Positions 3,020 through 56,419 of a DNA stretch of 64,000 bases are shown here, one piece after another. The notes beneath the pieces were generated by a model, which was not told where the DNA came from, did no database searches, and was given only the letters and a program-made list of their open reading frames with translations. A program made the position numbers and the translations under genes. This stretch comes from Minisyncoccia bacterium (GTDB lineage Bacteria; Patescibacteriota; Minisyncoccia; Phycocordibacterales; UBA9973), in the NCBI GenBank assembly GCA_044229265.1, contig JBGATK010000005.1:14963-78962 (forward strand), in the 5' to 3' direction. How positions within the stretch are numbered: the first letter of the stretch is position 1; each line of letters starts with the position of its first letter.

Positions 3020-3715
3020 TTATGCGGTCTTCAAAAACAAAAAGAAGTTTTTGAAAAATTTATAAACACTTGAGAACACAAATCTTAATGTGAACCCAAA
3101 TGTTGCACCGAGGATAAATGGCAGGTTTTTAAATAGTCCAGACTTAATCATTGCTAAAATGTAGTACTTAAATCTCAAACAATTGCCAAATTTCCTAATT
3201 TCCTCATCTTTATTCCACTTATCAAATGAAATAAGATTAATAAATAATAAAGAAAGTGAGGACATTGCAAATCCTAAAATAATGTAAGTTCCTAAAAAGG
3301 TTATTAATCCATTAATTAAATTGGACAATGGGCCATACTTTAAATAAAACAAGTCAACAAAAGCAAATACTAATGGATATACCATCATAATACTAAAAGA
3401 AAGTATTGTAACAATTGCTACTCCAACTCTGGCATTGTACTTTTGTTCAATTGCAATCGAGTCAGTGTTTGGTTCTCTTCCGAAAATTTCATCTTTCTCA
3501 TTCCAAATGAAAGCGATAATGAAAATTAAAGGGAAGAAAATCAAATTCCACCAGTGGGAAATTTGAAGTGCATTAGGAAGATTTATCTCCCAAGTATCCC
3601 AAATGATTAAGGTTTTTTCATACAATGGTGTAGCTCTTGTAGCCAACAACACTGTGTAAGTGACCATGGTCATAAATGTAAACCAAAGGTACAAAGAAAA
3701 CTGTTTCCAATTCAT
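3020..3715 (-). CDS. Polytopic membrane protein, function unknown
   Basis: 231-aa ORF with multiple hydrophobic helices. No recognisable family. Confidence 0.4.
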   Translation of the reverse strand: MNWKQFSLYLWFTFMTMVTYTVLLATRATPLYEKTLIIWDTWEINLPNALQISHWWNLIFFPLIFIIAFIWNEKDEIFGREPNTDSIAIEQKYNARVGVAIVTILSFSIMMVYPLVFAFVDLFYLKYGPLSNLINGLITFLGTYIILGFAMSSLSLLFINLISFDKWNKDEEIRKFGNCLRFKYYILAMIKSGLFKNLPFILGATFGFTLRFVFSSVYKFFKNFFLFLKTA

Positions 3716-41517: not shown

Positions 41518-42747
41518 ATGCACAATCCATTTGAGAATGCCATGGCTCAGCTAGACAAAGTAGCTAAAATAAAAGACTTTGGTAGTGAATTTATAAACCA
41601 ACTACGTGCTCCAAACCGCGACATACGGATTTCTATCCCTGTAAAAATGGACGATGGCACTCAAAGGATTTTTGAAGGCTACAGAGTGGAATATAATGAC
41701 GCTCTTGGACCTTACAAGGGTGGCATTCGTTATCACTCTCTAACTGAAATCAACGAAGTCAAAGCTCTTGCTTTTTGGATGGCTATCAAATGTGCTGTAG
41801 CTGGCATACCTATGGGTGGAGGCAAAGGTGGCATTACTGTTGACCCGAAAGATTTATCCAAAGCTGAACTAGAAAGACTTTCTCGTGGCTGGGTAAAAAG
41901 ACTTTATGAAATACTTGGGCCACATAAAGATGTGCCTGCGCCGGATGTGAATACTACTGGTGAGATAATGAACTGGATGAATGATGAATACATGAAGCTC
42001 TCTGGCGAAAAAACTCTCGCTACTTTTACTGGCAAACCCCTTAGCTCTGGTGGATCAGAAGGCCGTGAGAGTGCTACAGGCCTCGGAGGATACTATGTTT
42101 TTAAAGCTCTGCAAGAAAAACTAGGCTTACCAGAAAAATGCTCTGTAGTTATACAAGGCTTTGGCAATGTAGGCTCTTTTGCCATGAAAAGCTTTGTAAA
42201 TGGAGGACATAAAGTCATGGCTATCTCAGACTCTAAAGGTGGAGTTTACAGTGAAGCTGGGCTTGATTTTGAGGCTTTGGTGGCACACAAAAAGGCTACA
42301 GGGTCGCTCGCAGACTATCCTGGTGCAAAAAATGTAAGTAATGAAGAACTGCTCGAAATACAGTGCGATGTGCTCGTGCCAGCAGCTTTTGAAAATCAAA
42401 TTACAGATAAAAATGCAAATAATATAAAAGCTAAAGTAGTGCTAGAACTTGCAAATGGTCCAACCACACCAGAGGCTGATGAAATACTATCTGGTAAGGG
42501 TATCGCTGTGATTCCTGATGTGCTCGCGAATTCTGGTGGAGTAACTGTCTCGTATTTCGAATGGGATCAAAATTTAAAAAATGAAAAATGGAATGAAGCT
42601 GATGTAAATATCAAGCTAGACGAAATCCTAAAAGATTCTGCAAGTAAAATTTTTGATATTTCAAAAGAACACAATACTACCCTGCGCAACAGCGCTTTTA
42701 TACTAGCCCTCGACAGAATTAAAGCAAAAACCCCGACGCATTTATAA
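41518..42747 (+). CDS. gdhA: Glutamate dehydrogenase (Glu/Leu/Phe/Val dehydrogenase family)
   Basis: KCAVAGIPMGGGKGG catalytic Lys/Gly-rich motif and NAD(P) GFGNVG motif. Confidence 0.9.
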   Translation: MHNPFENAMAQLDKVAKIKDFGSEFINQLRAPNRDIRISIPVKMDDGTQRIFEGYRVEYNDALGPYKGGIRYHSLTEINEVKALAFWMAIKCAVAGIPMGGGKGGITVDPKDLSKAELERLSRGWVKRLYEILGPHKDVPAPDVNTTGEIMNWMNDEYMKLSGEKTLATFTGKPLSSGGSEGRESATGLGGYYVFKALQEKLGLPEKCSVVIQGFGNVGSFAMKSFVNGGHKVMAISDSKGGVYSEAGLDFEALVAHKKATGSLADYPGAKNVSNEELLEIQCDVLVPAAFENQITDKNANNIKAKVVLELANGPTTPEADEILSGKGIAVIPDVLANSGGVTVSYFEWDQNLKNEKWNEADVNIKLDEILKDSASKIFDISKEHNTTLRNSAFILALDRIKAKTPTHL

Positions 42748-42779
42748 AAATGGTCGGGGAGCCGACTTAAACGTCGGCT
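42731..42779. repeat. CCCCGAC-family GC-rich double hairpin (copy A)
   Basis: CCCCGAC-(15 nt)-GTCGGGG immediately followed by AGCCGAC-TTAAAC-GTCGGCT. Overlaps the last gdhA codons and ends 10 bp before the GIY-YIG start. Confidence 0.6.
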
Positions 42780-42788
42780 TGTAATATA

Positions 42789-43049
42789 ATGCCGTGTGTT
42801 TATATATTAAAAAATAAAAATGGAAACTTTTATATAGGTAGCACTATCAATTTAGAAGTTCGTATAAAGCAACACTTATCAGATTATTGTAAAACAACAA
42901 AAAGATTGGGTGCCTACGAGCTGGTATTTCATCAAAATTATGAAAATATAAAAGATGCTAGAAGAATTGAATATAAATTAAAACAATTGAAAAGAAAGGA
43001 TTATATTGCTAATATAATAAAAGATGGTTTTATTAAGATAAAACCATAG
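42789..43049 (+). CDS. Small GIY-YIG nuclease family protein
   Basis: MPCVYILKNKNGNFYIGSTINLEVRIKQH... contains GIY(x10)YIG with a conserved Arg and Glu. 86 aa. Paralogous to 55364..55642. Confidence 0.8.
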   Translation: MPCVYILKNKNGNFYIGSTINLEVRIKQHLSDYCKTTKRLGAYELVFHQNYENIKDARRIEYKLKQLKRKDYIANIIKDGFIKIKP

Positions 43050-43052
43050 TTT

Positions 43053-43125
43053 GGGCGGTTAGCTCAGTTGGTAGAGCGCAATATTGACGTTATTGATGTC
43101 AGAGGTTCGAATCCTCTACCGCCCA
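43053..43125 (+). tRNA. tRNA-Val (anticodon GAC)
   Basis: Acceptor GGGCGGT/ACCGCCC, D-arm GCTC-AGTTGGTA-GAGC, anticodon stem CAATA/TATTG, loop TTGACGT, T-arm AGAGG-TTCGAAT-CCTCT. Starts 4 nt after the GIY-YIG stop. Confidence 0.75.
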
Positions 43126-43197
43126 CTAGAATTGTAATTAGCGGTTTATTCAAAACAAATAGCTTATCGCACACAGAAAATATGCTACTATAAGGAT

Positions 43198-44025
43198 ATG
43201 CAAAATATTCACTTTTTGAATGGGAAATTTGTTAGTGAGGAGGAACTCCTTATCTCCCCTCGAGATTTGGGTTATACGCGTGGTTATGCTGTATTTGATT
43301 TCTTGCGTACTTACAATGGCAAACCATTTCACCTAAGTGAACATATAGAACGACTTTTAAATTCAGCAAAGCTTATTGATCTAAAAATTCCTTATACAAA
43401 AGAAGAAATAGAAAAAATAGTTTTAGAAACTTTAAATAAAAATAATAAAGACACAGAAAAAGCTATTAAAATCATAGCTTCAGGTGGCATTTCGAGCAAA
43501 ATGACTCAAATAGGTTCCCCTACTTTTATGATTTGGATTGATGACATGCCACCTGTGCCACAAGAGTACTATGAAAATGGCATAGGCATAATTACAGTCA
43601 AATACAAAAGATACATGCCAGAAGCTAAAACGAATAATTATATAGAAGGAGTAAAACAAACCCAAATAGCAGAAAGTGTGGGTGCACTCGAGCCGGTGTA
43701 TTTTGACGACGATGGTTTATATGAAAGCTCAAATAGTAATCTTTTTATAATTAAAAATGGCAAAATCTATACTCAAAAAGAAAATATGCTAATTGGTATC
43801 ACTAGGAAAGTTTTAATAGAAATTCTAAAACCTGAATTTATAGTCGAAGAAAAAAATCTAAAAATAGAAGATTTGCTCGGAGCTGATGAAGCATTTTTGA
43901 CAGGCAGTGCCAAAGAGATTTTGCCGATAGTCAAAATAGATGGCAAAATTTTTAGCCTAGGCGTGGTTGGTGAAAATACTAAAAAAATCTTAGAAATATG
44001 GAAGAAATATACAAATAAATATTAA
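43198..44025 (+). CDS. Class IV (branched-chain/D-amino acid) PLP-dependent aminotransferase
   Basis: Fold-type IV aminotransferase length and motifs (..RGYAVFDFLRTYNGKPF...EAFLTGSAKEILPI). Confidence 0.75.
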   Translation: MQNIHFLNGKFVSEEELLISPRDLGYTRGYAVFDFLRTYNGKPFHLSEHIERLLNSAKLIDLKIPYTKEEIEKIVLETLNKNNKDTEKAIKIIASGGISSKMTQIGSPTFMIWIDDMPPVPQEYYENGIGIITVKYKRYMPEAKTNNYIEGVKQTQIAESVGALEPVYFDDDGLYESSNSNLFIIKNGKIYTQKENMLIGITRKVLIEILKPEFIVEEKNLKIEDLLGADEAFLTGSAKEILPIVKIDGKIFSLGVVGENTKKILEIWKKYTNKY

Positions 44026-45181: not shown

Positions 45182-48100
45182 TTAAACCTTAAAATCTTTC
45201 TTTAGATAACCCTTAGTAATTTGAATTCCTTCTTCACTATGGACTTTGGTATAAGAACCGTCAGCATTTTTTTGCTCTATAGAAATATTGTAATTACCAT
45301 TTGGAGCCAAACAGAAATAATTGCCGAGGCGATCGATAATTTTATGAGTAATTTCTGTACCACTTTGCTTAGAGAATACACGTAAAATTCCATAAGCTAT
45401 AGGAGCGCCAATTTTAAACATAGCTTTGCCTTTAGCATTATTACCAAACTCTGTATGATTAAAAGCAAATAATATACCGTAAAGTGCAAATATGATTACA
45501 TTGTAATCTTTAATTTGACTACCGAGCAAAGTGATACCAGAAACAATAAAACCTACTAAAAAGAATATATCTACTATTTGCCCTACTGCTTTATCACTAC
45601 GCTTATACCAACGCAAACGATGTTGTTCTAATTTTGCATATTCATTCCAATCAAAACCTATTCTATCCATAGGAATATTTTTACTAATCACTTCTCCGAA
45701 TTCTTTTATTTCAATATAATTTCCATAATAAAGATCAGTATAAACTTCGTCTCTATCTCTACTATTTAATTTACTTGATGGGAAAACATAATGGGTTTTT
45801 TCAGCAATAATATGATAATGACCTGGCTCTACTAAAAATCCATACCTACCATCTATATCTGTAAAACAAGTTGCTAAAGTTTTCTTTTCTATGTCTACAA
45901 GTTTTAAATACACAGGATCGAGAGGTTGTTTGGTTTGTGAATCAAACACTACGCCCCATGGCTTGTGGCGTTTTTTAATACCAAAACCATAGAGGAACAT
46001 GGACCATGCTCGCATAGCGAGGTCTGTAATTCCAAGTGGATTTGTAAATACAAGTCGCACAAGATTCAGCGCAATAGTAGAAGCAGCTCCTAAAATAACT
46101 AAGGTTTTGGTAATTGCACTACCTAATATATCAGAAATTATTTCAAAAATTCCTTTTCCTGTATTTACACCAGAATTTTCATTTTGGTTTTCGCTACTAG
46201 GATTATTATTAGGATTTTGATTTGGATTATTGCCTGACGGAATATTTGGATTATTTGGTGGCGTATTTGGATTACTTGGATTATTACCTGATCCGCCATT
46301 TGGGGTAGTTGGATTATTATTTGGAGTTGTCGGAGTATTTGGAACAGATGGATTGCCACTTGGTGTATTTGGAGGATTTGTTGGTGGTGTAGGTATTGGA
46401 TTATCTGGAGTATTTGGTGGTATATTTGGATTTGAAGTATCACTATCTGTGGTTGAGACAGAAAAAATTACATCTGCTACACCATCATAACTAGTAGCCG
46501 AAAGTTCATCTATAACAGAAATAATAATATTATAACTTTGATTTCCATCAACCACTCCATCTGAAATACCAGTCAAAGTTATAGTTTGTGGTGTATTCCA
46601 ATTATTATTACTAAAAGTAATAGTTGCCGGCGAAACAGTGCCTTCATTTGTATTGCTAGAAGTAATAGATAAAACTACATCACTAGTGATATTTGATTTT
46701 AGCGATATGGTAAAAGTATCTGTGGTATTTTCAGAAACCATAGTTCCACCCTCTGTATGAACTACATTTATTCCTGGTTGCTGTCCACCGCCTCCACCCC
46801 CACCACCTCCTCCACCAACAGTTTCAGATACATCAAAAACCATAATACGATGATGTCCTGCATCAGCTTCATACAAATAATCATGAACACTATCATATCT
46901 AAGACCATTTGGATTACCTATACCAGATTGAGAAAGAGTAGGACTACCTGTTGTAAAATTTCCTTTACCTAAAACTTTTACCGCATTTTCTCCGTCAATA
47001 ATAGTAGATACATCAAAAGTTAAAACACGGTGATTAGCAACATCGGAAACAAAAAGTGTGTTATCCGAGCTACGCAGAGCAAGACCAAAAGGAAGATTAA
47101 ATTTCGATTGAGTAAGGCCGCTACTTCCAGTAGTAAAATTACTTTGTCCTAAGACATTTACAGCATTTTCGCCGTCAGTTATTGTAGCTACATCAAAGAC
47201 CATGACTCTATGATTATTACCATCAGCTACATAAAGTTTGTGATTAGTATTATCATACAAAACACCAAAAGTTGTATTGAATTTTGCTACTGTATTTCCT
47301 GTAGTTCTAGTAGTAAAATTGTTTTGTCCAATAACATTCACCGCGTTTTCGCCATCAGTGATAGTAGCTACATCAAAAGTTAAAACACGATGATTGTAAG
47401 TATCAGAAACGAAAAGTCTATTATTGGTAGAATCAAAAGATAAACCGTAAGGATAATACATCCTGGATTGAGTTACACCATTTAATGCATTTGTGAAATT
47501 GGGTTGCCCTAAAACATTTACTGCATTTTCACCGTTTACAATAGTAGTAGTATCAAAAACCATTACACGAGAATTTGTGGTATCAGAAACAAAAAGCCTA
47601 TTATTTACATCATCAAAAGCAAGCATAGTCGGATGATTTAATCCGGACTGTGTTGTAGTAGTTTCCCTTGAATTAAAATTAGGCTGACCTAAAACATAGT
47701 CTGGGATACGGTCCATCAGCAGATCATCAGAAGTTAAATTGTAAACTAACACTCTATGATTCCCATTATCTACCACGAATAAACGGTGATTGGTGTGGTC
47801 CATTGCAATATCTACAGGCTGATCGAGTCCTATTGCATTCGGCGTATCTGTAGATGAAAAATAAAACGGAACAGGATCAGTGAAATTGGTGCCATCGTAT
47901 TTACCAATCAAATCAACAGCGTTTTCACCGTTTGTAATAGTAGTTGTATCAAATATCATTATGCGATTATTATTATAATCACCTACGAACAAATAATCAT
48001 TAACTTCATCAAAAGCTAAGCTTTGAGGTGAAATTAATTTAGATTGACTAGTGTTGCCAGTTGAAGTTGTAAAATCTGTTTGACCTAGAACTTTTACTGC

Positions 48101-50356
48101 ATTTTCGCCATCAGTAATTGCGGTAGTATCAAAAACCATAATTCTATTATTATCTGAATCTGATACAAATAAACGATTATTTCCATCGAGAAGTAAAGCA
48201 TTTGGATTACTAAATCCATTAATAGTAGTTGCTACTGTATTTGAATAAAAATTAGATTGACCTAATACATTGTCTGGAACAAGGTCTTCCAATTCATTTG
48301 TGATTGATAAATCATAAACCAAAACACGATGATTCCCTGTATCTAAGACAAAAAGTCTATGATTTATAGTATCTATTACTTGGCCAGTGGGGTTAGATAA
48401 TCCCAATCTATTTGGAGCATCATCTATTCTCTGTGTTGTATAAATAGGATATGGACTAGAAACAGAAGTTTGATCGTATTGACCTATCGCATCACCAGCG
48501 TCCATACCATTTACCATTTCATCTTGTGCGGCAAATTGTAGCATACGATGCAAACTAGAATCTGTTACAAAAACACCTGCATTCTCAGGTAAGCTTACAG
48601 CTATGCCTTCAGGAGTATATATACCATTTTGATCTACATCTAAATTCTGGCTAGTAAAATTACTCTGGCCTAGAACATGCACTGCATTTTCACCATCTGT
48701 AATTGTATTTACATTATATTGAGTTATTCGCGAATTATTTTTTTCAGAAACAAATAAAGTTCCATCATTGTCAGCACCGTTCGCACCATCTCCAAAATAA
48801 GCTACATCGTGAGGATGATTCATGGTGGACTGCGTAATATCTCCGCTATTACTAATAAAGTCTGGTTGACCAAGTACATTTACTGCATCTTCACCGTCAG
48901 TAATAGTATTTACATCAAAGACTAGAACACGATTATTGTCTGCATCTGCCACAAAGAGTCTACCTGTTGCATAATCTATCGAAACACCTTTTGGAGAAGC
49001 CATACCATTTACCGTTGTCGTATAATTACTACTTACAAAATCACTTTGGCCTAAAACTTTTGTTGCATCTTCACCATTTGTTATACTAGCAACATCAAAG
49101 ACTAGAACACGATTATTGTAAACATCAGCTACATATAAAAAATTTTCTGAAAATAATATTCCCTCTGGGTAATTAATACCTGACTGCGAAAGATTTGAAT
49201 TATTACTAACAAAATCCACTTGTCCGAGAACTGCCATAGCATCTTCACCGTCTGTTATACCATCACTTAAATCATAAGCTAAAATACGATTATTTCCTGT
49301 GTCGGAAACAAAAAGTCGAGAATTTAAATAATCAAAAGTAAGACGAGTTGGGTTATTTAAAGAAGATATTGAAGTTCCTGAATTATTAGTATAATAATTT
49401 GACTGCCCTAAAACATAGTCCGGTATTCTGTCTGTGCTAGAAAAACTATTATGTACATCCAAATTATAAACCAAAATACGATTATTTGAGCTATCTGCTA
49501 AGAATAAAAAACCTCCACCTATAGCCACACCTTTAGGTGTATTAAATCCCAATCTATTTGGTGAATTATTCGCTCTATTTGAAGTATAAAGAGATGTAAG
49601 ATTACTGTAATCTGTTTCATCATATTGACCAAGCAACTTTGTTGCATCTTCACCATTTGTTATACTAGCAACATCAAAAACTAAAACTCTATGATTTGCA
49701 GAATCAGAAACATAAAGTAAATTATTAGTGTCGTCTAAGGATAATCCTTTTGGACTACTTAAACCCCACGCAGTAGCATTGTTTCCGCTGCTAACAAAAT
49801 CACTTTGACCTAAAACATTTATCGCTGTTTCGCCATTGGTAATTTCAGCAACATTAAAAATCATTATACGATTATTAGAAGAATCAGAAACATAAAGTAA
49901 ATTATTTACTGAATCAAAAACCAAATTACTAGGATTGTTTAAACCTGATTCCGTTGTATTAATAGTATTAGTGTAAAAATTAGATTGACCAAGTACATTA
50001 TCTGGAACATGATCTACAAGTAAATCTCCTGCTGTTAAATCAAAAACTAAGATACGATTATTTGCTGAATCAGAAACAAAGAGTCTATGATTCACAGAAT
50101 CAACGACTTGACCATATGAACCAGTAAAACTAAATAAATTTGGTAAATTGTTTACACGGCTAGACGTATAAAGTGGATTTGGATTTGGATAACCAGTTTC
50201 ATCAAATTGACCTAGTCCATTTGTAGCATTAGGACCATCGGAAAAAGAATTTATATTAATAACAAAATAAATAGACAAACCTACACCAAGAAGAATAGAT
50301 AAAGTAGCGAGAAAAAAATGTTTAGTTTTCATATTATTCATAGGATATATGTACAT
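45182..50356 (-). CDS. Giant surface protein with ~18 NHL (beta-propeller) repeats, a poly-Gly tract, an Ig/Calx-like segment, a Pro/Thr/Asn-rich linker and a C-terminal membrane anchor
   Basis: N-terminal signal/TM segment. Recurring ~45-aa units (N[NH]R[IV][LM]VFD...ITDGENAVNVLGQ.NFT). Other segments are GGGGGGGGGGG, PNTPDNPIPTPPTNPPNTP... and a DGRYGF carboxypeptidase-regulatory-like segment. Several hydrophobic helices lie near the C-terminus. Confidence 0.8.
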   Translation of the reverse strand: MYIYPMNNMKTKHFFLATLSILLGVGLSIYFVININSFSDGPNATNGLGQFDETGYPNPNPLYTSSRVNNLPNLFSFTGSYGQVVDSVNHRLFVSDSANNRILVFDLTAGDLLVDHVPDNVLGQSNFYTNTINTTESGLNNPSNLVFDSVNNLLYVSDSSNNRIMIFNVAEITNGETAINVLGQSDFVSSGNNATAWGLSSPKGLSLDDTNNLLYVSDSANHRVLVFDVASITNGEDATKLLGQYDETDYSNLTSLYTSNRANNSPNRLGFNTPKGVAIGGGFLFLADSSNNRILVYNLDVHNSFSSTDRIPDYVLGQSNYYTNNSGTSISSLNNPTRLTFDYLNSRLFVSDTGNNRILAYDLSDGITDGEDAMAVLGQVDFVSNNSNLSQSGINYPEGILFSENFLYVADVYNNRVLVFDVASITNGEDATKVLGQSDFVSSNYTTTVNGMASPKGVSIDYATGRLFVADADNNRVLVFDVNTITDGEDAVNVLGQPDFISNSGDITQSTMNHPHDVAYFGDGANGADNDGTLFVSEKNNSRITQYNVNTITDGENAVHVLGQSNFTSQNLDVDQNGIYTPEGIAVSLPENAGVFVTDSSLHRMLQFAAQDEMVNGMDAGDAIGQYDQTSVSSPYPIYTTQRIDDAPNRLGLSNPTGQVIDTINHRLFVLDTGNHRVLVYDLSITNELEDLVPDNVLGQSNFYSNTVATTINGFSNPNALLLDGNNRLFVSDSDNNRIMVFDTTAITDGENAVKVLGQTDFTTSTGNTSQSKLISPQSLAFDEVNDYLFVGDYNNNRIMIFDTTTITNGENAVDLIGKYDGTNFTDPVPFYFSSTDTPNAIGLDQPVDIAMDHTNHRLFVVDNGNHRVLVYNLTSDDLLMDRIPDYVLGQPNFNSRETTTTQSGLNHPTMLAFDDVNNRLFVSDTTNSRVMVFDTTTIVNGENAVNVLGQPNFTNALNGVTQSRMYYPYGLSFDSTNNRLFVSDTYNHRVLTFDVATITDGENAVNVIGQNNFTTRTTGNTVAKFNTTFGVLYDNTNHKLYVADGNNHRVMVFDVATITDGENAVNVLGQSNFTTGSSGLTQSKFNLPFGLALRSSDNTLFVSDVANHRVLTFDVSTIIDGENAVKVLGKGNFTTGSPTLSQSGIGNPNGLRYDSVHDYLYEADAGHHRIMVFDVSETVGGGGGGGGGGGQQPGINVVHTEGGTMVSENTTDTFTISLKSNITSDVVLSITSSNTNEGTVSPATITFSNNNWNTPQTITLTGISDGVVDGNQSYNIIISVIDELSATSYDGVADVIFSVSTTDSDTSNPNIPPNTPDNPIPTPPTNPPNTPSGNPSVPNTPTTPNNNPTTPNGGSGNNPSNPNTPPNNPNIPSGNNPNQNPNNNPSSENQNENSGVNTGKGIFEIISDILGSAITKTLVILGAASTIALNLVRLVFTNPLGITDLAMRAWSMFLYGFGIKKRHKPWGVVFDSQTKQPLDPVYLKLVDIEKKTLATCFTDIDGRYGFLVEPGHYHIIAEKTHYVFPSSKLNSRDRDEVYTDLYYGNYIEIKEFGEVISKNIPMDRIGFDWNEYAKLEQHRLRWYKRSDKAVGQIVDIFFLVGFIVSGITLLGSQIKDYNVIIFALYGILFAFNHTEFGNNAKGKAMFKIGAPIAYGILRVFSKQSGTEITHKIIDRLGNYFCLAPNGNYNISIEQKNADGSYTKVHSEEGIQITKGYLKKDFKV

Positions 50357-54955: not shown

Positions 54956-55297
54956 ATGCGATCAGTTTTACATGCAAAAATTCATAAAGCCACAGTAACG
55001 GAAGCAGATTTGAGCTATATCGGTAGTATTACTATTGATCAAGAATTAGCCGAAAAGGTTGGCCTTTGGGATGGCGAAAAAGTCATGGTGGTTTCTAATA
55101 CCTCGGGTAACCGCCTAGAAACTTATGTAATCTACGGAGCTAGGAATTCTGGCATCATATGCATGAACGGCGCCGCAGCTCACCTAATAAAAAAAGGAGA
55201 TGAAATAATAATTATGGGCTTTGAACTTACAGATAAACCCATCAAAGCTACCAACATACTTGTCGATAAACAAAACAAATTTGTTAAGTTTTTGTAA
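54956..55297 (+). CDS. panD: Aspartate 1-decarboxylase (pyruvoyl-dependent)
   Basis: MRSVLHAKIHKATVTEADLSYIGSITID matches the PanD N-terminus including the Gly-Ser self-cleavage site. 113 aa. Confidence 0.9.
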   Translation: MRSVLHAKIHKATVTEADLSYIGSITIDQELAEKVGLWDGEKVMVVSNTSGNRLETYVIYGARNSGIICMNGAAAHLIKKGDEIIIMGFELTDKPIKATNILVDKQNKFVKFL

Positions 55298-55298
55298 A

Positions 55299-55373
55299 TG
55301 GTGCCGGGGGTGAGAATCGCACTCACGACCTATCCCTCTTCAGGGGAGAGCTCTACTACTGAGCTACCCCGGC
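55299..55373 (-). tRNA. tRNA-Phe-like (anticodon GAA), non-canonical features
   Basis: Minus-strand sequence GCCGGGGTAGCTCAGTAGTAGAGCT CTCCC CTGAAGA GGGAT AGGTC GTGAG TGCGATT CTCAC CCCCGGC A CCA. CCA is encoded. There is a C-U mismatch at 27-43, G at position 37 and G at T-loop position 55. Confidence 0.6.
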
Positions 55374-55642
55374 ATTTTTATTTTAACAAAACCATCTTTT
55401 ACTATCTTCTCTATGTAATCATGTCTTTTAAATTTTTTCAACCTTTTCTCAATATATCTTACCTCACTCAATGTTTCAAATTTTTGTGAAAAAACTAATT
55501 TTAATTTTCCCATCTTACTGGTTGAAGGTGTATAACCTCCATTATGATGCCTAATTCTTTCATCTATATCAGTAGTGCTACCTATATAGTAATTCCCCTT
55601 TTCACTTTGTAATATATATACGTATGGCATATATTTTAACAC
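55364..55642 (-). CDS. Small GIY-YIG nuclease family protein (paralog of 42789..43049)
   Basis: MPYVYILQSEKGNYYIGSTTDIDERIRHH..., ending in KDGFVKIKMPG. The last three codons and stop overlap nt 1-10 of the tRNA. An alternative start at 55630 gives MPYVYIL, as in the paralog. Confidence 0.8.
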   Translation of the reverse strand: MLKYMPYVYILQSEKGNYYIGSTTDIDERIRHHNGGYTPSTSKMGKLKLVFSQKFETLSEVRYIEKRLKKFKRHDYIEKIVKDGFVKIKMPG

Positions 55643-55644
55643 TG

Positions 55645-55698
55645 AGCCCCGACGCTTTCGGTCGGGATCCCGACTTTACGTCGGGGCTACCCCGGCAT
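55645..55698. repeat. CCCCGAC-family nested palindrome (copy C) plus a 13-bp duplicate of the tRNA 5' end
   Basis: AGCCCCGAC-GCTTTCG-GTCGGGA|TCCCGAC-TTTAC-GTCGGGGCT, then GCTACCCCGGCAT (55686-55698), which is identical to 55363-55375 at the tRNA 5' end. Confidence 0.6.
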
Positions 55699-55712
55699 AT
55701 ATGAATAATAGA

Positions 55713-55958
55713 TTAAGGCACTAAATCTTTTAATTTTTGAAAAGATGAATTGGTTTCTTTTACTGTGTTTTGCAATTGCTCTACAAAAGGTTGTAGAAAA
55801 TAAAAAGTACCAACTGAAACACCTACAATCAAAATCCAATAAAAAATCTTAAAAAATAGGTTCCATTTTTGGATGCCTCTTACTTTTTTAAGCATTTCAT
55901 TGTTCTCTTTTACTAATGCTAAAGTTTCCTCTAGCATTTGCTTTTCTTCTGTATCCAC
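55713..55958 (-). CDS. Small membrane protein, unknown function
   Basis: 81 aa with an N-terminal coiled/charged region and one hydrophobic helix. Confidence 0.35.
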   Translation of the reverse strand: MDTEEKQMLEETLALVKENNEMLKKVRGIQKWNLFFKIFYWILIVGVSVGTFYFLQPFVEQLQNTVKETNSSFQKLKDLVP

Positions 55959-55982
55959 TCAAATATATTATCATAAAGAATT

Positions 55983-56013
55983 AAAAAAGCCAACTTGGGT
56001 ATTTGGCTTTTTT
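55983..56013. terminator. Bidirectional hairpin terminator
   Basis: AGCCAA-CTTGGGTAT-TTGGCT flanked by AAAAA and TTTTT. Confidence 0.45.
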
Positions 56014-56053
56014 ATGTTAAATTATATAAGGTTTTTTATTGTTTCGCCCTCAT

Positions 56054-56095
56054 AGCCCCGACGTAAAGTCGGGGAGCCGACAAGTATCGTCGGCT
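56054..56095. repeat. CCCCGAC-family double hairpin (copy B), solo copy upstream of tRNA-Arg
   Basis: AGCCCCGAC-GTAAA-GTCGGGG followed by AGCCGAC-AAGTATC-GTCGGCT. Same architecture as copy A. It ends 15 bp before the tRNA 5' end. Confidence 0.6.
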
Positions 56096-56110
56096 TTCAA
56101 TAGACAAAGC

Positions 56111-56182
56111 GTCCTTGTAGTTAAATGGATATAACTTCCCCGTCCTAAGGGGACATTGCAGGTCCGATTCCTGCCAAGGACA
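56111..56182 (+). tRNA. tRNA-Arg (anticodon CCT)
   Basis: Acceptor GTCCTTG/CAAGGAC, D-arm GTTA-AATGGATA-TAAC, anticodon stem TCCCC/GGGGA, loop GTCCTAA, T-arm GCAGG-TCCGATT-CCTGC (C at position 55). No CCA encoded. Confidence 0.7.
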
Positions 56183-56185
56183 CAA

Positions 56186-56419
56186 TTAGACTCCCAAAAG
56201 ACTCGATATTTTTTGTTTATCAAAACCTACGATTAAATCATTCTCTATAAGTATAACTGGCACGCCTAACTGGCCGGATTTTTCTACCATTTCTTTGCGT
56301 TTATCCATATCACTCGCTACATCGTGCTCGGTATAAGCTACATTGTTTTCTTTAAAGAACTCTTTCGCCATTTGGCAAAAATGACAACTAGGTGTGGAAT
56401 ATATTGTTACGTTTTTCAT
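56186..56419 (-). CDS. Glutaredoxin/NrdH-like thiol-disulfide protein
   Basis: 77 aa with CHFC active site and a thioredoxin fold (TIYSTPSCHFCQMAKEF). Confidence 0.75.
   Translation of the reverse strand: MKNVTIYSTPSCHFCQMAKEFFKENNVAYTEHDVASDMDKRKEMVEKSGQLGVPVILIENDLIVGFDKQKISSLLGV

Follow-up and report, generated by a model that had tools for sequence, protein, structure and literature searches.

Genes for GIY-YIG nucleases have been described in several settings that bear on the locus reported here. Phage T4 carries a free-standing GIY-YIG homing endonuclease gene, that of SegB, in a tRNA cluster (PMC2330249). In bacteria of the candidate phyla radiation (CPR), rRNA genes contain non-intron insertions that encode GIY-YIG proteins, which are sparse and were judged to lie outside a homing context (Tsurumaki et al. 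2024, PMC11270868). Group I introns, which are different from the element described below, occur in tRNA genes of Patescibacteria (PMC13011429). The stand-alone UPF0213/Slx1-like proteins BH0048 (1zg2) and EF2693 (1ywl), like the protein reported here, are minimal at ~85-100 amino acids (aa) and have no auxiliary domain (PMC1564403). Here, we describe a small GIY-YIG gene that is preceded by a pair of hairpins and joined to a tRNA gene in a 64,000-nucleotide (nt) stretch of a Minisyncoccia bacterium genome (GenBank assembly GCA_044229265.1, contig JBGATK010000005.1, positions 14,963 to 78,962 of the forward strand). We refer to this whole stretch as the window and to the unit as the cassette.

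Our favored reading, which we consider moderately probable, is that the locus belongs to a family of selfish cassettes of ~330 bp, found across the CPR/Patescibacteria, in which a hairpin pair, an 86-aa GIY-YIG gene, and a tRNA spread together in a homing-like manner. The cassette sits in the 5' part of a tRNA gene, and a complete tRNA follows the open reading frame (ORF).

Units at tRNA-Val, tRNA-Phe, and tRNA-Arg in the window

The first unit lies between the glutamate dehydrogenase gene gdhA (41518..42747, + strand, 409 aa) and an intact tRNA-Val(GAC) (43053..43126, +). It begins with a double hairpin (42731..42779, +), the conserved 5' module of the cassette, which overlaps the gdhA stop. 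In hairpin 1, CCCCGAC (42731-42737) pairs with GTCGGGG (42753-42759) around a 15-nt loop that holds the gdhA stop codon TAA (42745-42747); in hairpin 2, AGCCGAC (42760-42766) pairs with GTCGGCT (42773-42779) around a 6-nt loop. The last five codons of gdhA (TPTHL*) come from hairpin 1, and in cassette-free relatives the protein ends ...RIKEKML*, ~10 nt 5' of tRNA-Val. A 9-nt spacer leads from hairpin 2 to the ATG at 42789 of the nuclease gene (42789..43049, +), whose 86-aa product (MPCVYIL...KIKP) is a minimal Slx1/UPF0213-like protein with the catalytic residues Y5, Y15, R25, H29, and E61 present. The first-pass annotation, made from the letters of the window alone, had reported a double CCCCGAC hairpin over the end of gdhA, a GIY-YIG ORF, and a same-strand tRNA-Val, and all are found where it placed them. 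The tight same-strand adjacency of ORF and tRNA also stands, with the distance corrected from 4 nt to 3 nt (ttt).

The spacer, TGTAATATA (42780..42788, +), is a candidate degenerate D-arm remnant (tRNA nt 16-24) by comparison with better-preserved loci, and it is probably a decayed form of TTGGTAGAG, the version kept in those loci. No tRNA 5' fragment precedes the hairpins of the Val unit, nor those of the related locus L004 (L-numbers are labels of compared loci from related genomes or contigs), and gdhA now runs into hairpin 1. As DNA, the hairpin region folds at -19 kcal/mol, with z = -6.7 against shuffled sequences. The pattern CCGAC-N3-14-GTCGG occurs five times in the window against 0.04 expected, solely at three tRNA-proximal sites; hairpin 1 of the Val locus is left out of the five because its 15-nt loop exceeds the search pattern. 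In 42500-43300 and 55200-56300, no Rfam match at E up to 10 was found for a group I or group II intron or for the hairpins. The tRNA-Val downstream of the ORF is uninterrupted, so the locus shows neither the ribozyme core nor the interrupted gene of an intron-bearing tRNA.

A second unit lies on the opposite strand. Its ORF (55364..55630, -; MPYVYIL..., 88 aa) runs from an ATG at 55630 to a stop at 55364-55366 within an intact tRNA-Phe(GAA) (55299..55373, -), where the TAG is nt 8-10 of the tRNA. Its double hairpin (55645..55688, -) sits between nt 10 and 11 of a leftover tRNA fragment. Directly 5' of the hairpins is the leftover tRNA-Phe 5' end, ATGCCGGGGTAGC (55686..55698, -), an exact 13-nt direct repeat of 55363-55375 that corresponds to tRNA-Phe nt 1-11 plus two leader nucleotides. 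This embedding of the hairpins in remnant sequence from the 5' end of the tRNA itself had been missed by the first-pass annotation. Its proposal that two GIY-YIG paralogs share one hairpin-gene-tRNA layout is borne out, also by pairwise alignment of the Phe-linked and Val-linked proteins (49% identity across 85 residues, E 4e-32). The accompanying idea that the copies are members of a dispersed family holds for the family, as set out below; the pair in the window, at this identity, are old paralogs rather than recent intragenomic transpositions.

A third, ORF-less copy stands directly before an intact tRNA-Arg(CCT) (56111..56183, +). This relic (56046..56109, +) consists of a degenerate tRNA 5' fragment (GCCCTCATAG), a hairpin pair (56056-56095), and a D-loop remnant (TTCAATAGA). 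The origin of such relics is shown by the related locus L045, where the ORF of a tandem second unit is cut to 9 nt (ATGCCATTT).

The encoded protein is a recognizable but bare GIY-YIG domain. Pfam GIY-YIG (PF01541) matches residues 1-70 of the Val copy at E 8.5e-16 and the Phe copy at E 5.3e-14, and the motif is kept across the family, with Y5 in 81 of 82 sequences and Y15, G17, R25, H29, and E61 in all 82. The AlphaFold2 (AF2) model (pLDDT, the predicted local distance difference test score, 88) has the GIY-YIG fold, a three-stranded sheet with flanking helices, in the topology b-b-a-a-b-a-a, and consists of the bare domain with one helix added. There is a conserved basic C-terminal motif, LKxLKRxDY..G.I, and no conserved Asn after E61; the lack of a conserved C-terminal Asn is a signature of the Slx1-like lineage (PMC1564403). 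Foldseek placed UPF0213 BH0048 (1zg2) first and also found Slx1, the N-terminal domain of UvrC, and I-TevI, and a profile search of the PDB returned 1zg2 (E 4.2e-12) and 1ywl (EF2693; 5.7e-08) ahead of I-TevI, Slx1, and UvrC. With UPF0213 proteins as its closest sequence relatives, a domain-only build, and no C-terminal Asn, the protein has the features of the Slx1-like stand-alone group. No NCBIfam model reaches its cut-off for the 86-aa protein; TIGR01453 reaches 32 bits, short of its cut-off of 56, over the first 40 residues only, and the canonical homing-endonuclease architecture of an N-terminal GIY-YIG domain, a linker, and a C-terminal DNA-binding domain is missing. Because it has no DNA-binding domain, the protein is not a canonical I-TevI/Seg-type homing endonuclease. 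The unit holds no recombinase ORF, as a tRNA-targeting integrative element would, and neither the HUH Y1 transposase nor the hairpins at both ends that mark IS200/IS605 or REP/RAYT (REP, repetitive extragenic palindrome) elements. The protein is under purifying selection and, judged from its conserved residues, appears to be a catalytically competent nuclease.

The family across CPR genomes

Relatives were collected by scanning one genome per species with a single peptide pattern, which returned 157; the best 80 loci, which span many CPR phyla, were kept. Homologs are annotated as Candidatus Paceibacterota and similar, and the exact Val-linked protein is also present in three other metagenome contigs in identical context. 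A family profile searched against 1.84 billion cluster representatives matched 1,291 clusters at E <= 1e-10. Measured from the ORF stop, the next tRNA on the same strand begins at -10 nt in 24 of the 80 loci and at 0 to +16 nt in ~35 others; in all, ~87% of the ORFs in these loci adjoin a tRNA on their own strand. Among the ORFs in the fetched loci that match the family hidden Markov model (HMM), 77 of 92 adjoin a tRNA called by ARAGORN, and at least three exceptions were rescued by Rfam: L061 and L025 (tRNA-Asn with a group I intron) and L080 (a tRNA overlooked by ARAGORN). This enrichment, together with that of the hairpins (93 of 112 clusters lie at a GIY-YIG ORF), supports a dispersed family rather than chance, as the first-pass annotation had argued.

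When the targeted tRNAs are tabulated across the family, the partners comprise at least 15 anticodon types, with Thr-TGT the commonest, followed by Phe, Val, Asn, Arg-GCG, His, Ile-TAT, Lys, Ala, Pro, and Gly. Among the 92 family ORFs, tRNAs for Glu, Leu, Ser, Tyr, and Gln are never partners, and these tRNAs have either no TAGCTCAG-type D-arm or long variable arms. In the protein tree, the sequences linked to Asn, His, Thr-GGT, and Arg-GCG form clades, and those linked to Thr-TGT, Phe, Lys, and Ile are interleaved, so a strict correspondence of one clade to one tRNA holds in part only.

In 24 loci, the ORF stop falls on U8-A9-G10 of the tRNA. We considered this as a trait of the element and rejected it, because cassette-free gdhA uses the same TAG in L090 (3715-3724) and L096 (3718-3727), where it overlaps tRNA-Val by 9-10 nt. 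These two overlaps make overlaps between protein genes and tRNAs look like general compaction of these genomes, and the tight ORF/tRNA junction is partly an effect of it.

Across the family, the hairpins are embedded in leftover tRNA sequence. The stretch that precedes them repeats the 5' end of the same tRNA that follows the ORF, and 3' of the hairpins this leftover sequence resumes with no nucleotide lost or duplicated. The insertion points are discrete: nt 10|11 in ~22 loci, 15|16 in 11 loci, and 33|34 in the His clade. In an anticodon-arm class (L049, L065, L073, L082), a single hairpin stands in place of nt 28-43. The leftover copy ends at about nt 16-27, or at nt 53-59 in the anticodon-arm class, and the ATG follows 2-15 nt on. 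The D-arm remnant fits the type of tRNA at the locus: CTCAAT, for instance, occurs with Asn and TGGATAGGA with Arg-GCG. Insertion position tracks protein clade, and the anticodon-arm class is a deep clade of its own in the protein tree, which argues that protein and architecture evolved together.

The fragment and the intact tRNA are not always copies of one sequence. They are identical across the 7-nt acceptor strand in 24 loci and represent different alleles of the same isoacceptor in ~10 loci beyond L069 and L036. In these two, an intact tRNA-Ile is joined to the ORF, and behind it comes the hairpin-bearing remnant of another tRNA-Ile allele, whose 3' acceptor strand is complementary to the 5' fragment upstream of the ORF (GGGCCAG.. 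and GCGCCTG.., respectively). The complementary acceptor strands indicate a resident tRNA-Ile split around an incoming ORF and tRNA, and this arrangement of sequences suggests that the two can arrive together. Mirror forms also occur (L062, L074, L022), with the order intact tRNA, ORF, TAGCTCAG, hairpins, and remainder of a tRNA.

A CCGAC..GTCGG pair is found 10-60 nt 5' of the start codon in ~74 of the 80 loci. Beyond the CCGAC core, the stem continues for two base pairs that are of Watson-Crick type in 169 and 163 of 185 distinct hairpins; four kinds of pair occur there, and pairing stops at the following position. These patterns point to a 7-bp stem that is selected for pairing and whose core is fixed in sequence; the core is identical across distant CPR phyla, although it was partly fixed by the search pattern, and CCGAT/ATCGG variants with compensating changes were also found. 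The hairpins are not a general repeat of these genomes, because the clusters counted above, from 422 kb of GIY-anchored DNA, concentrate at the ORFs, whereas 383 kb of GIY-free DNA from related genomes holds four single pattern matches. Hairpins are nested within hairpin loops in L012, L018, L020, L024, L046, and L064. Canonical units have them only 5' of the ORF; in L069, L036, and L049, they occur on both flanks of the ORF and tRNA. In L049 (~3400-3520), the intact tRNA-Arg is followed by a near-full-length pseudo-tRNA-Arg, which has a hairpin, GTCCGATG..CATCGGAC, of a family distinct from the CCGAC type in place of its anticodon arm and a second hairpin in its T-arm.

The gdhA/tRNA-Val junction, compared in a gdhA-anchored metagenome scan that returned 80 loci, shows that the unit is not a fixed part of this neighborhood. 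In ~25 relatives whose gdhA is 68-75% identical, tRNA-Val(GAC) lies -9 to +48 nt from the gdhA stop with no hairpins and no GIY-YIG gene. A cassette is present at this junction only in the lineage of the window, in L004, and in L106, and these three filled lineages are dispersed among empty relatives in a neighbor-joining tree of gdhA. L004 has a GIY-YIG protein 70% identical to that of the window and the same gdhA-hairpin fusion. L106 has a decayed copy, with the hairpins and the first ~10 codons deleted and the remainder frameshifted. The empty junctions and this decayed copy indicate that the cassette has been gained and lost; such presence and absence at a conserved site, with degenerate copies, is the behavior of a homing-endonuclease-type mobile element. 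L095 is empty; a degenerate tRNA-Val fragment of 25 nt remains at the resident site, and the intact tRNA lies 39 nt beyond it. Only one of the 57 tRNAs in the gdhA-anchored loci carries a unit, the decayed one.

Several further observations concern the same genes and contigs. In L061 (440-796) and L025 (3656-3903), the GIY-YIG ORF is directly followed by a group I intron (RF00028, 80-85 bits), which presumably interrupts a tRNA-Asn not detected by ARAGORN, in which case two different selfish elements share one tRNA gene. The ORF-fused tRNA of L015 (3255-3328) was called 'tRNA-Stop' by ARAGORN, with anticodon TTA at position 35. This tRNA is similar at its 5' end to the tRNA-Lys of L050, and the call may reflect a wrongly set anticodon loop rather than a suppressor tRNA. 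Many public contigs (L013, L022, L024, L033, L036, L045, L062, L066, L072, L074, and L081) stop ~80-250 nt past the end of the GIY-YIG ORF. The duplicated tRNA and hairpin sequences may interrupt assembly, and the family may thus be under-counted in metagenome-assembled genomes. Family proteins in databases are often 105-135 aa long, with N-terminal extensions of 20-45 residues that are probably over-long gene calls, the stop-to-stop frames reaching about as far as the hairpins or the tRNA fragment.

Other insertions and genes were seen in the compared neighborhoods. A 640-nt insert between gdhA and tRNA-Val in L109 and L119 was considered as a divergent GIY-YIG gene and rejected; it is an opposite-strand ORF of 162-167 aa (L119 3782-4270, -; L109 2990-3493, -) that parts the two genes by ~650 nt and represents a second, unrelated insertion there. 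As an anchor for empty tRNA-Phe sites, panD was uninformative, since PanD is ~80% identical across CPR and DPANN archaea and panD is not syntenic with tRNA-Phe elsewhere. Near panD on an unrelated CPR contig, L167 (2226-2882, -) has faint LAGLIDADG Pfam matches and may be another homing-endonuclease-type gene in these genomes. In the window itself, a 1724-aa ORF (45182-50356, -) lies a short way downstream of the Val locus.

Possible routes of spread and maintenance

In the reading we favor, the nuclease would stimulate recombination at tRNA-gene DNA, and copies of the cassette would thereby enter alleles of the same isoacceptor or a similar one. Insertion would cost the host nothing, because the cassette brings an entire tRNA with it, and in some loci this tRNA is demonstrably not the same allele as the disrupted resident. 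The ORF, which has no recognizable promoter or Shine-Dalgarno sequence of its own, probably depends for its expression on read-through, either out of the gene before it or from the tRNA promoter. Read-through is suggested by the empty relatives, in which gdhA abuts or even overlaps tRNA-Val, and RNase P would then release the tRNA. The hairpins are most likely the structure bound by this domain-only nuclease of structure-specific type, and they may be the site that it recognizes or an operator-like replica of the target that it cannot cleave. I-TevI represses its own gene through an operator that mimics its homing site; by analogy, the hairpin-interrupted tRNA fragment, 9 nt from the ATG, could serve in such an operator role.

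Several points weigh against this reading. It is not obvious how an 86-aa domain would read a specific tRNA gene. Any target contained entirely within the tRNA is restored by the intact tRNA, so that classical disruption of a homing site cannot explain immunity, which must come from elsewhere, for example from allele differences, structure, or the hairpins. No recent intragenomic transposition was found, and copies at different tRNAs are old, as the 49% identity in the window illustrates. The Phe-linked copy has been kept beside tRNA-Arg(CCT) in at least 10 lineages, which could represent long vertical retention under selection. In addition, the protein and gdhA trees are neighbor-joining trees of short or moderately diverged sequences, so the number of independent gains is uncertain.

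A bolder extension, which we put forward tentatively, is that the cassette cleaves and rescues. The nuclease would disable a resident essential tRNA gene, the hairpins would mark the lesion at an exact cloverleaf position, and the cassette would supply a nuclease-resistant copy of the tRNA. With a functional, resistant tRNA joined to the nuclease gene, cells would have to keep the cassette. L069 and L036 have the anatomy that such a scheme predicts, in that the halves of the resident tRNA flank the ORF and a different allele. If this is correct, the cassette, at ~330 bp, would possibly be the smallest autonomous mobile element known.

The main rival to homing-like spread, which we regard as unlikely, is that the cassette is a hairpin-directed transposon. 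Its nuclease would act on hairpins folded in single-stranded DNA, as do the TnpA of IS200/IS605 and REP/RAYT enzymes, and the outcome would be true transposition rather than allele-to-allele homing, by excision or copy-out followed by integration at the D-arm or anticodon loop, for example Campbell-type via short tRNA homology. The conserved stem core with covarying outer pairs, the nested hairpins, the hairpins on both flanks in three loci, and the exact insertion positions without loss of tRNA nucleotides would all suit a transposon, as would the presence of the structure-specific nuclease Slx1 among the closest relatives of the protein. The one-sided hairpins of canonical units do not suit it, however, and neither a target-site duplication of fixed length nor near-identical copies at different loci of one genome were found. 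To our knowledge, GIY-YIG enzymes are hydrolytic, and none is known to catalyze strand transfer. A host function is less likely than such transposition, given the patchy distribution and the relics, and we consider it improbable. On this view, the gene would be a vertically inherited, beneficial partner of tRNA genes, acting in their maintenance, precursor processing, or regulation, with the fragments and hairpins as regulatory sequences. The strong purifying selection on the catalytic and C-terminal residues speaks for such a gene, as do the retention of the Phe-linked copy beside tRNA-Arg(CCT) in many Paceibacteria and the very probable co-transcription of the ORF with the tRNA. A GIY-YIG domain is also fused to the tRNA methyltransferase TrmH in one bacterium (Dunin-Horkawicz et al., PMC1564403). 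Yet the unit is patchy at an orthologous site, where one copy is a frameshifted, truncated relic; most tRNAs of the same genomes have no unit; and duplicated or disrupted tRNA copies with heterologous alleles are hallmarks of invasion.

The hairpins might also be explained without reference to mobility. As processing or stability signals in a gdhA-ORF-tRNA precursor, they could form an RNA device in which the GIY-YIG protein is a ribonuclease. Co-transcription is likely, since gdhA abuts or overlaps tRNA-Val in empty relatives, and the hairpins do lie at loop or arm positions of the cloverleaf. We nevertheless find such a device very improbable: the hairpins have no Rfam match, their stem mismatches show no strand bias towards G-U, and gain, loss, and tRNA duplication would be left unexplained. 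We know of no GIY-YIG enzyme that acts as a ribonuclease. The alternative that the hairpins are unrelated REP sequences, miniature inverted-repeat transposable elements, or plain terminators that lie near GIY-YIG and tRNA genes by coincidence is effectively refuted. GC-rich hairpins at gene ends in an AT-rich genome invite it, as do the set that overlaps the gdhA stop and the solo copy without an ORF. However, a genome-wide REP is at odds with the low density of hairpins in GIY-free DNA, and intrinsic terminators with the lack of a T-tract on the coding strand; the one terminator-like call in this region belongs to the other strand. The shared core in distant CPR phyla and the correlation of insertion position with protein clade also speak against coincidence.

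Comparison with known systems

If the favored reading is true, the cassette represents a new mobile-element architecture, in which an 86-residue nuclease and a 45-nt hairpin pair colonize essential tRNA genes harmlessly by tRNA duplication or replacement. It would provide the first genomic context, and hence the first testable function, for a branch of the structurally solved but functionally orphan Slx1/UPF0213 group. It would explain the tRNA pseudo-fragments and tandem tRNA copies in these genomes and may explain their frequent assembly breaks beside tRNAs and over-long ORF calls. Should the nuclease read the CCGAC hairpin or cloverleaf-like DNA, it would combine specificity for structure and sequence in a very small enzyme, which might be of practical use. 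The full-text literature searched, which leaves out most subscription journals, holds no description of a fusion between GIY-YIG and tRNA genes in CPR, and the family is apparently undescribed so far, with an unusual architecture and a minimal size.

The nearest relatives by protein, the UPF0213 members, share ~34% identity with the cassette protein and have no assigned function or reported genomic association; the cassette family differs in its own C-terminal motif and its obligate hairpin and tRNA context. SegB, reportedly a protein of ~220 aa that includes a DNA-binding domain and cuts within the tRNA gene region of the related phage, is phage-borne and has no hairpin module, duplicated tRNA fragment, or tRNA fusion. 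The GIY-YIG insertions in CPR rRNA genes resemble the cassette in their organisms, nuclease superfamily, and association with structural-RNA genes, and they are neither group I nor group II introns. They lie inside the rRNA genes, however, and no hairpins, duplication, or tRNA link have been reported for them; a connection between these unexplained insertions and the cassette is possible.

Among elements that move by other chemistries, phage and island integrases likewise integrate at tRNA genes, with a replacement segment that keeps the tRNA intact. These tRNA-targeting integrases are tyrosine or serine recombinases that duplicate the 3' end of the tRNA, and their elements are kilobases long, whereas the cassette measures 0.3 kb, its enzyme is a hydrolytic nuclease, and the duplicated segment is the 5' part. 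IS200/IS605 and REP/RAYT elements also combine a small enzyme gene with conserved short hairpins and can have ORF-less copies. The cassette is set apart from them by a GIY-YIG rather than an HUH enzyme, by one-sided hairpins, and by a strict tie to tRNA genes with duplication of a tRNA fragment.

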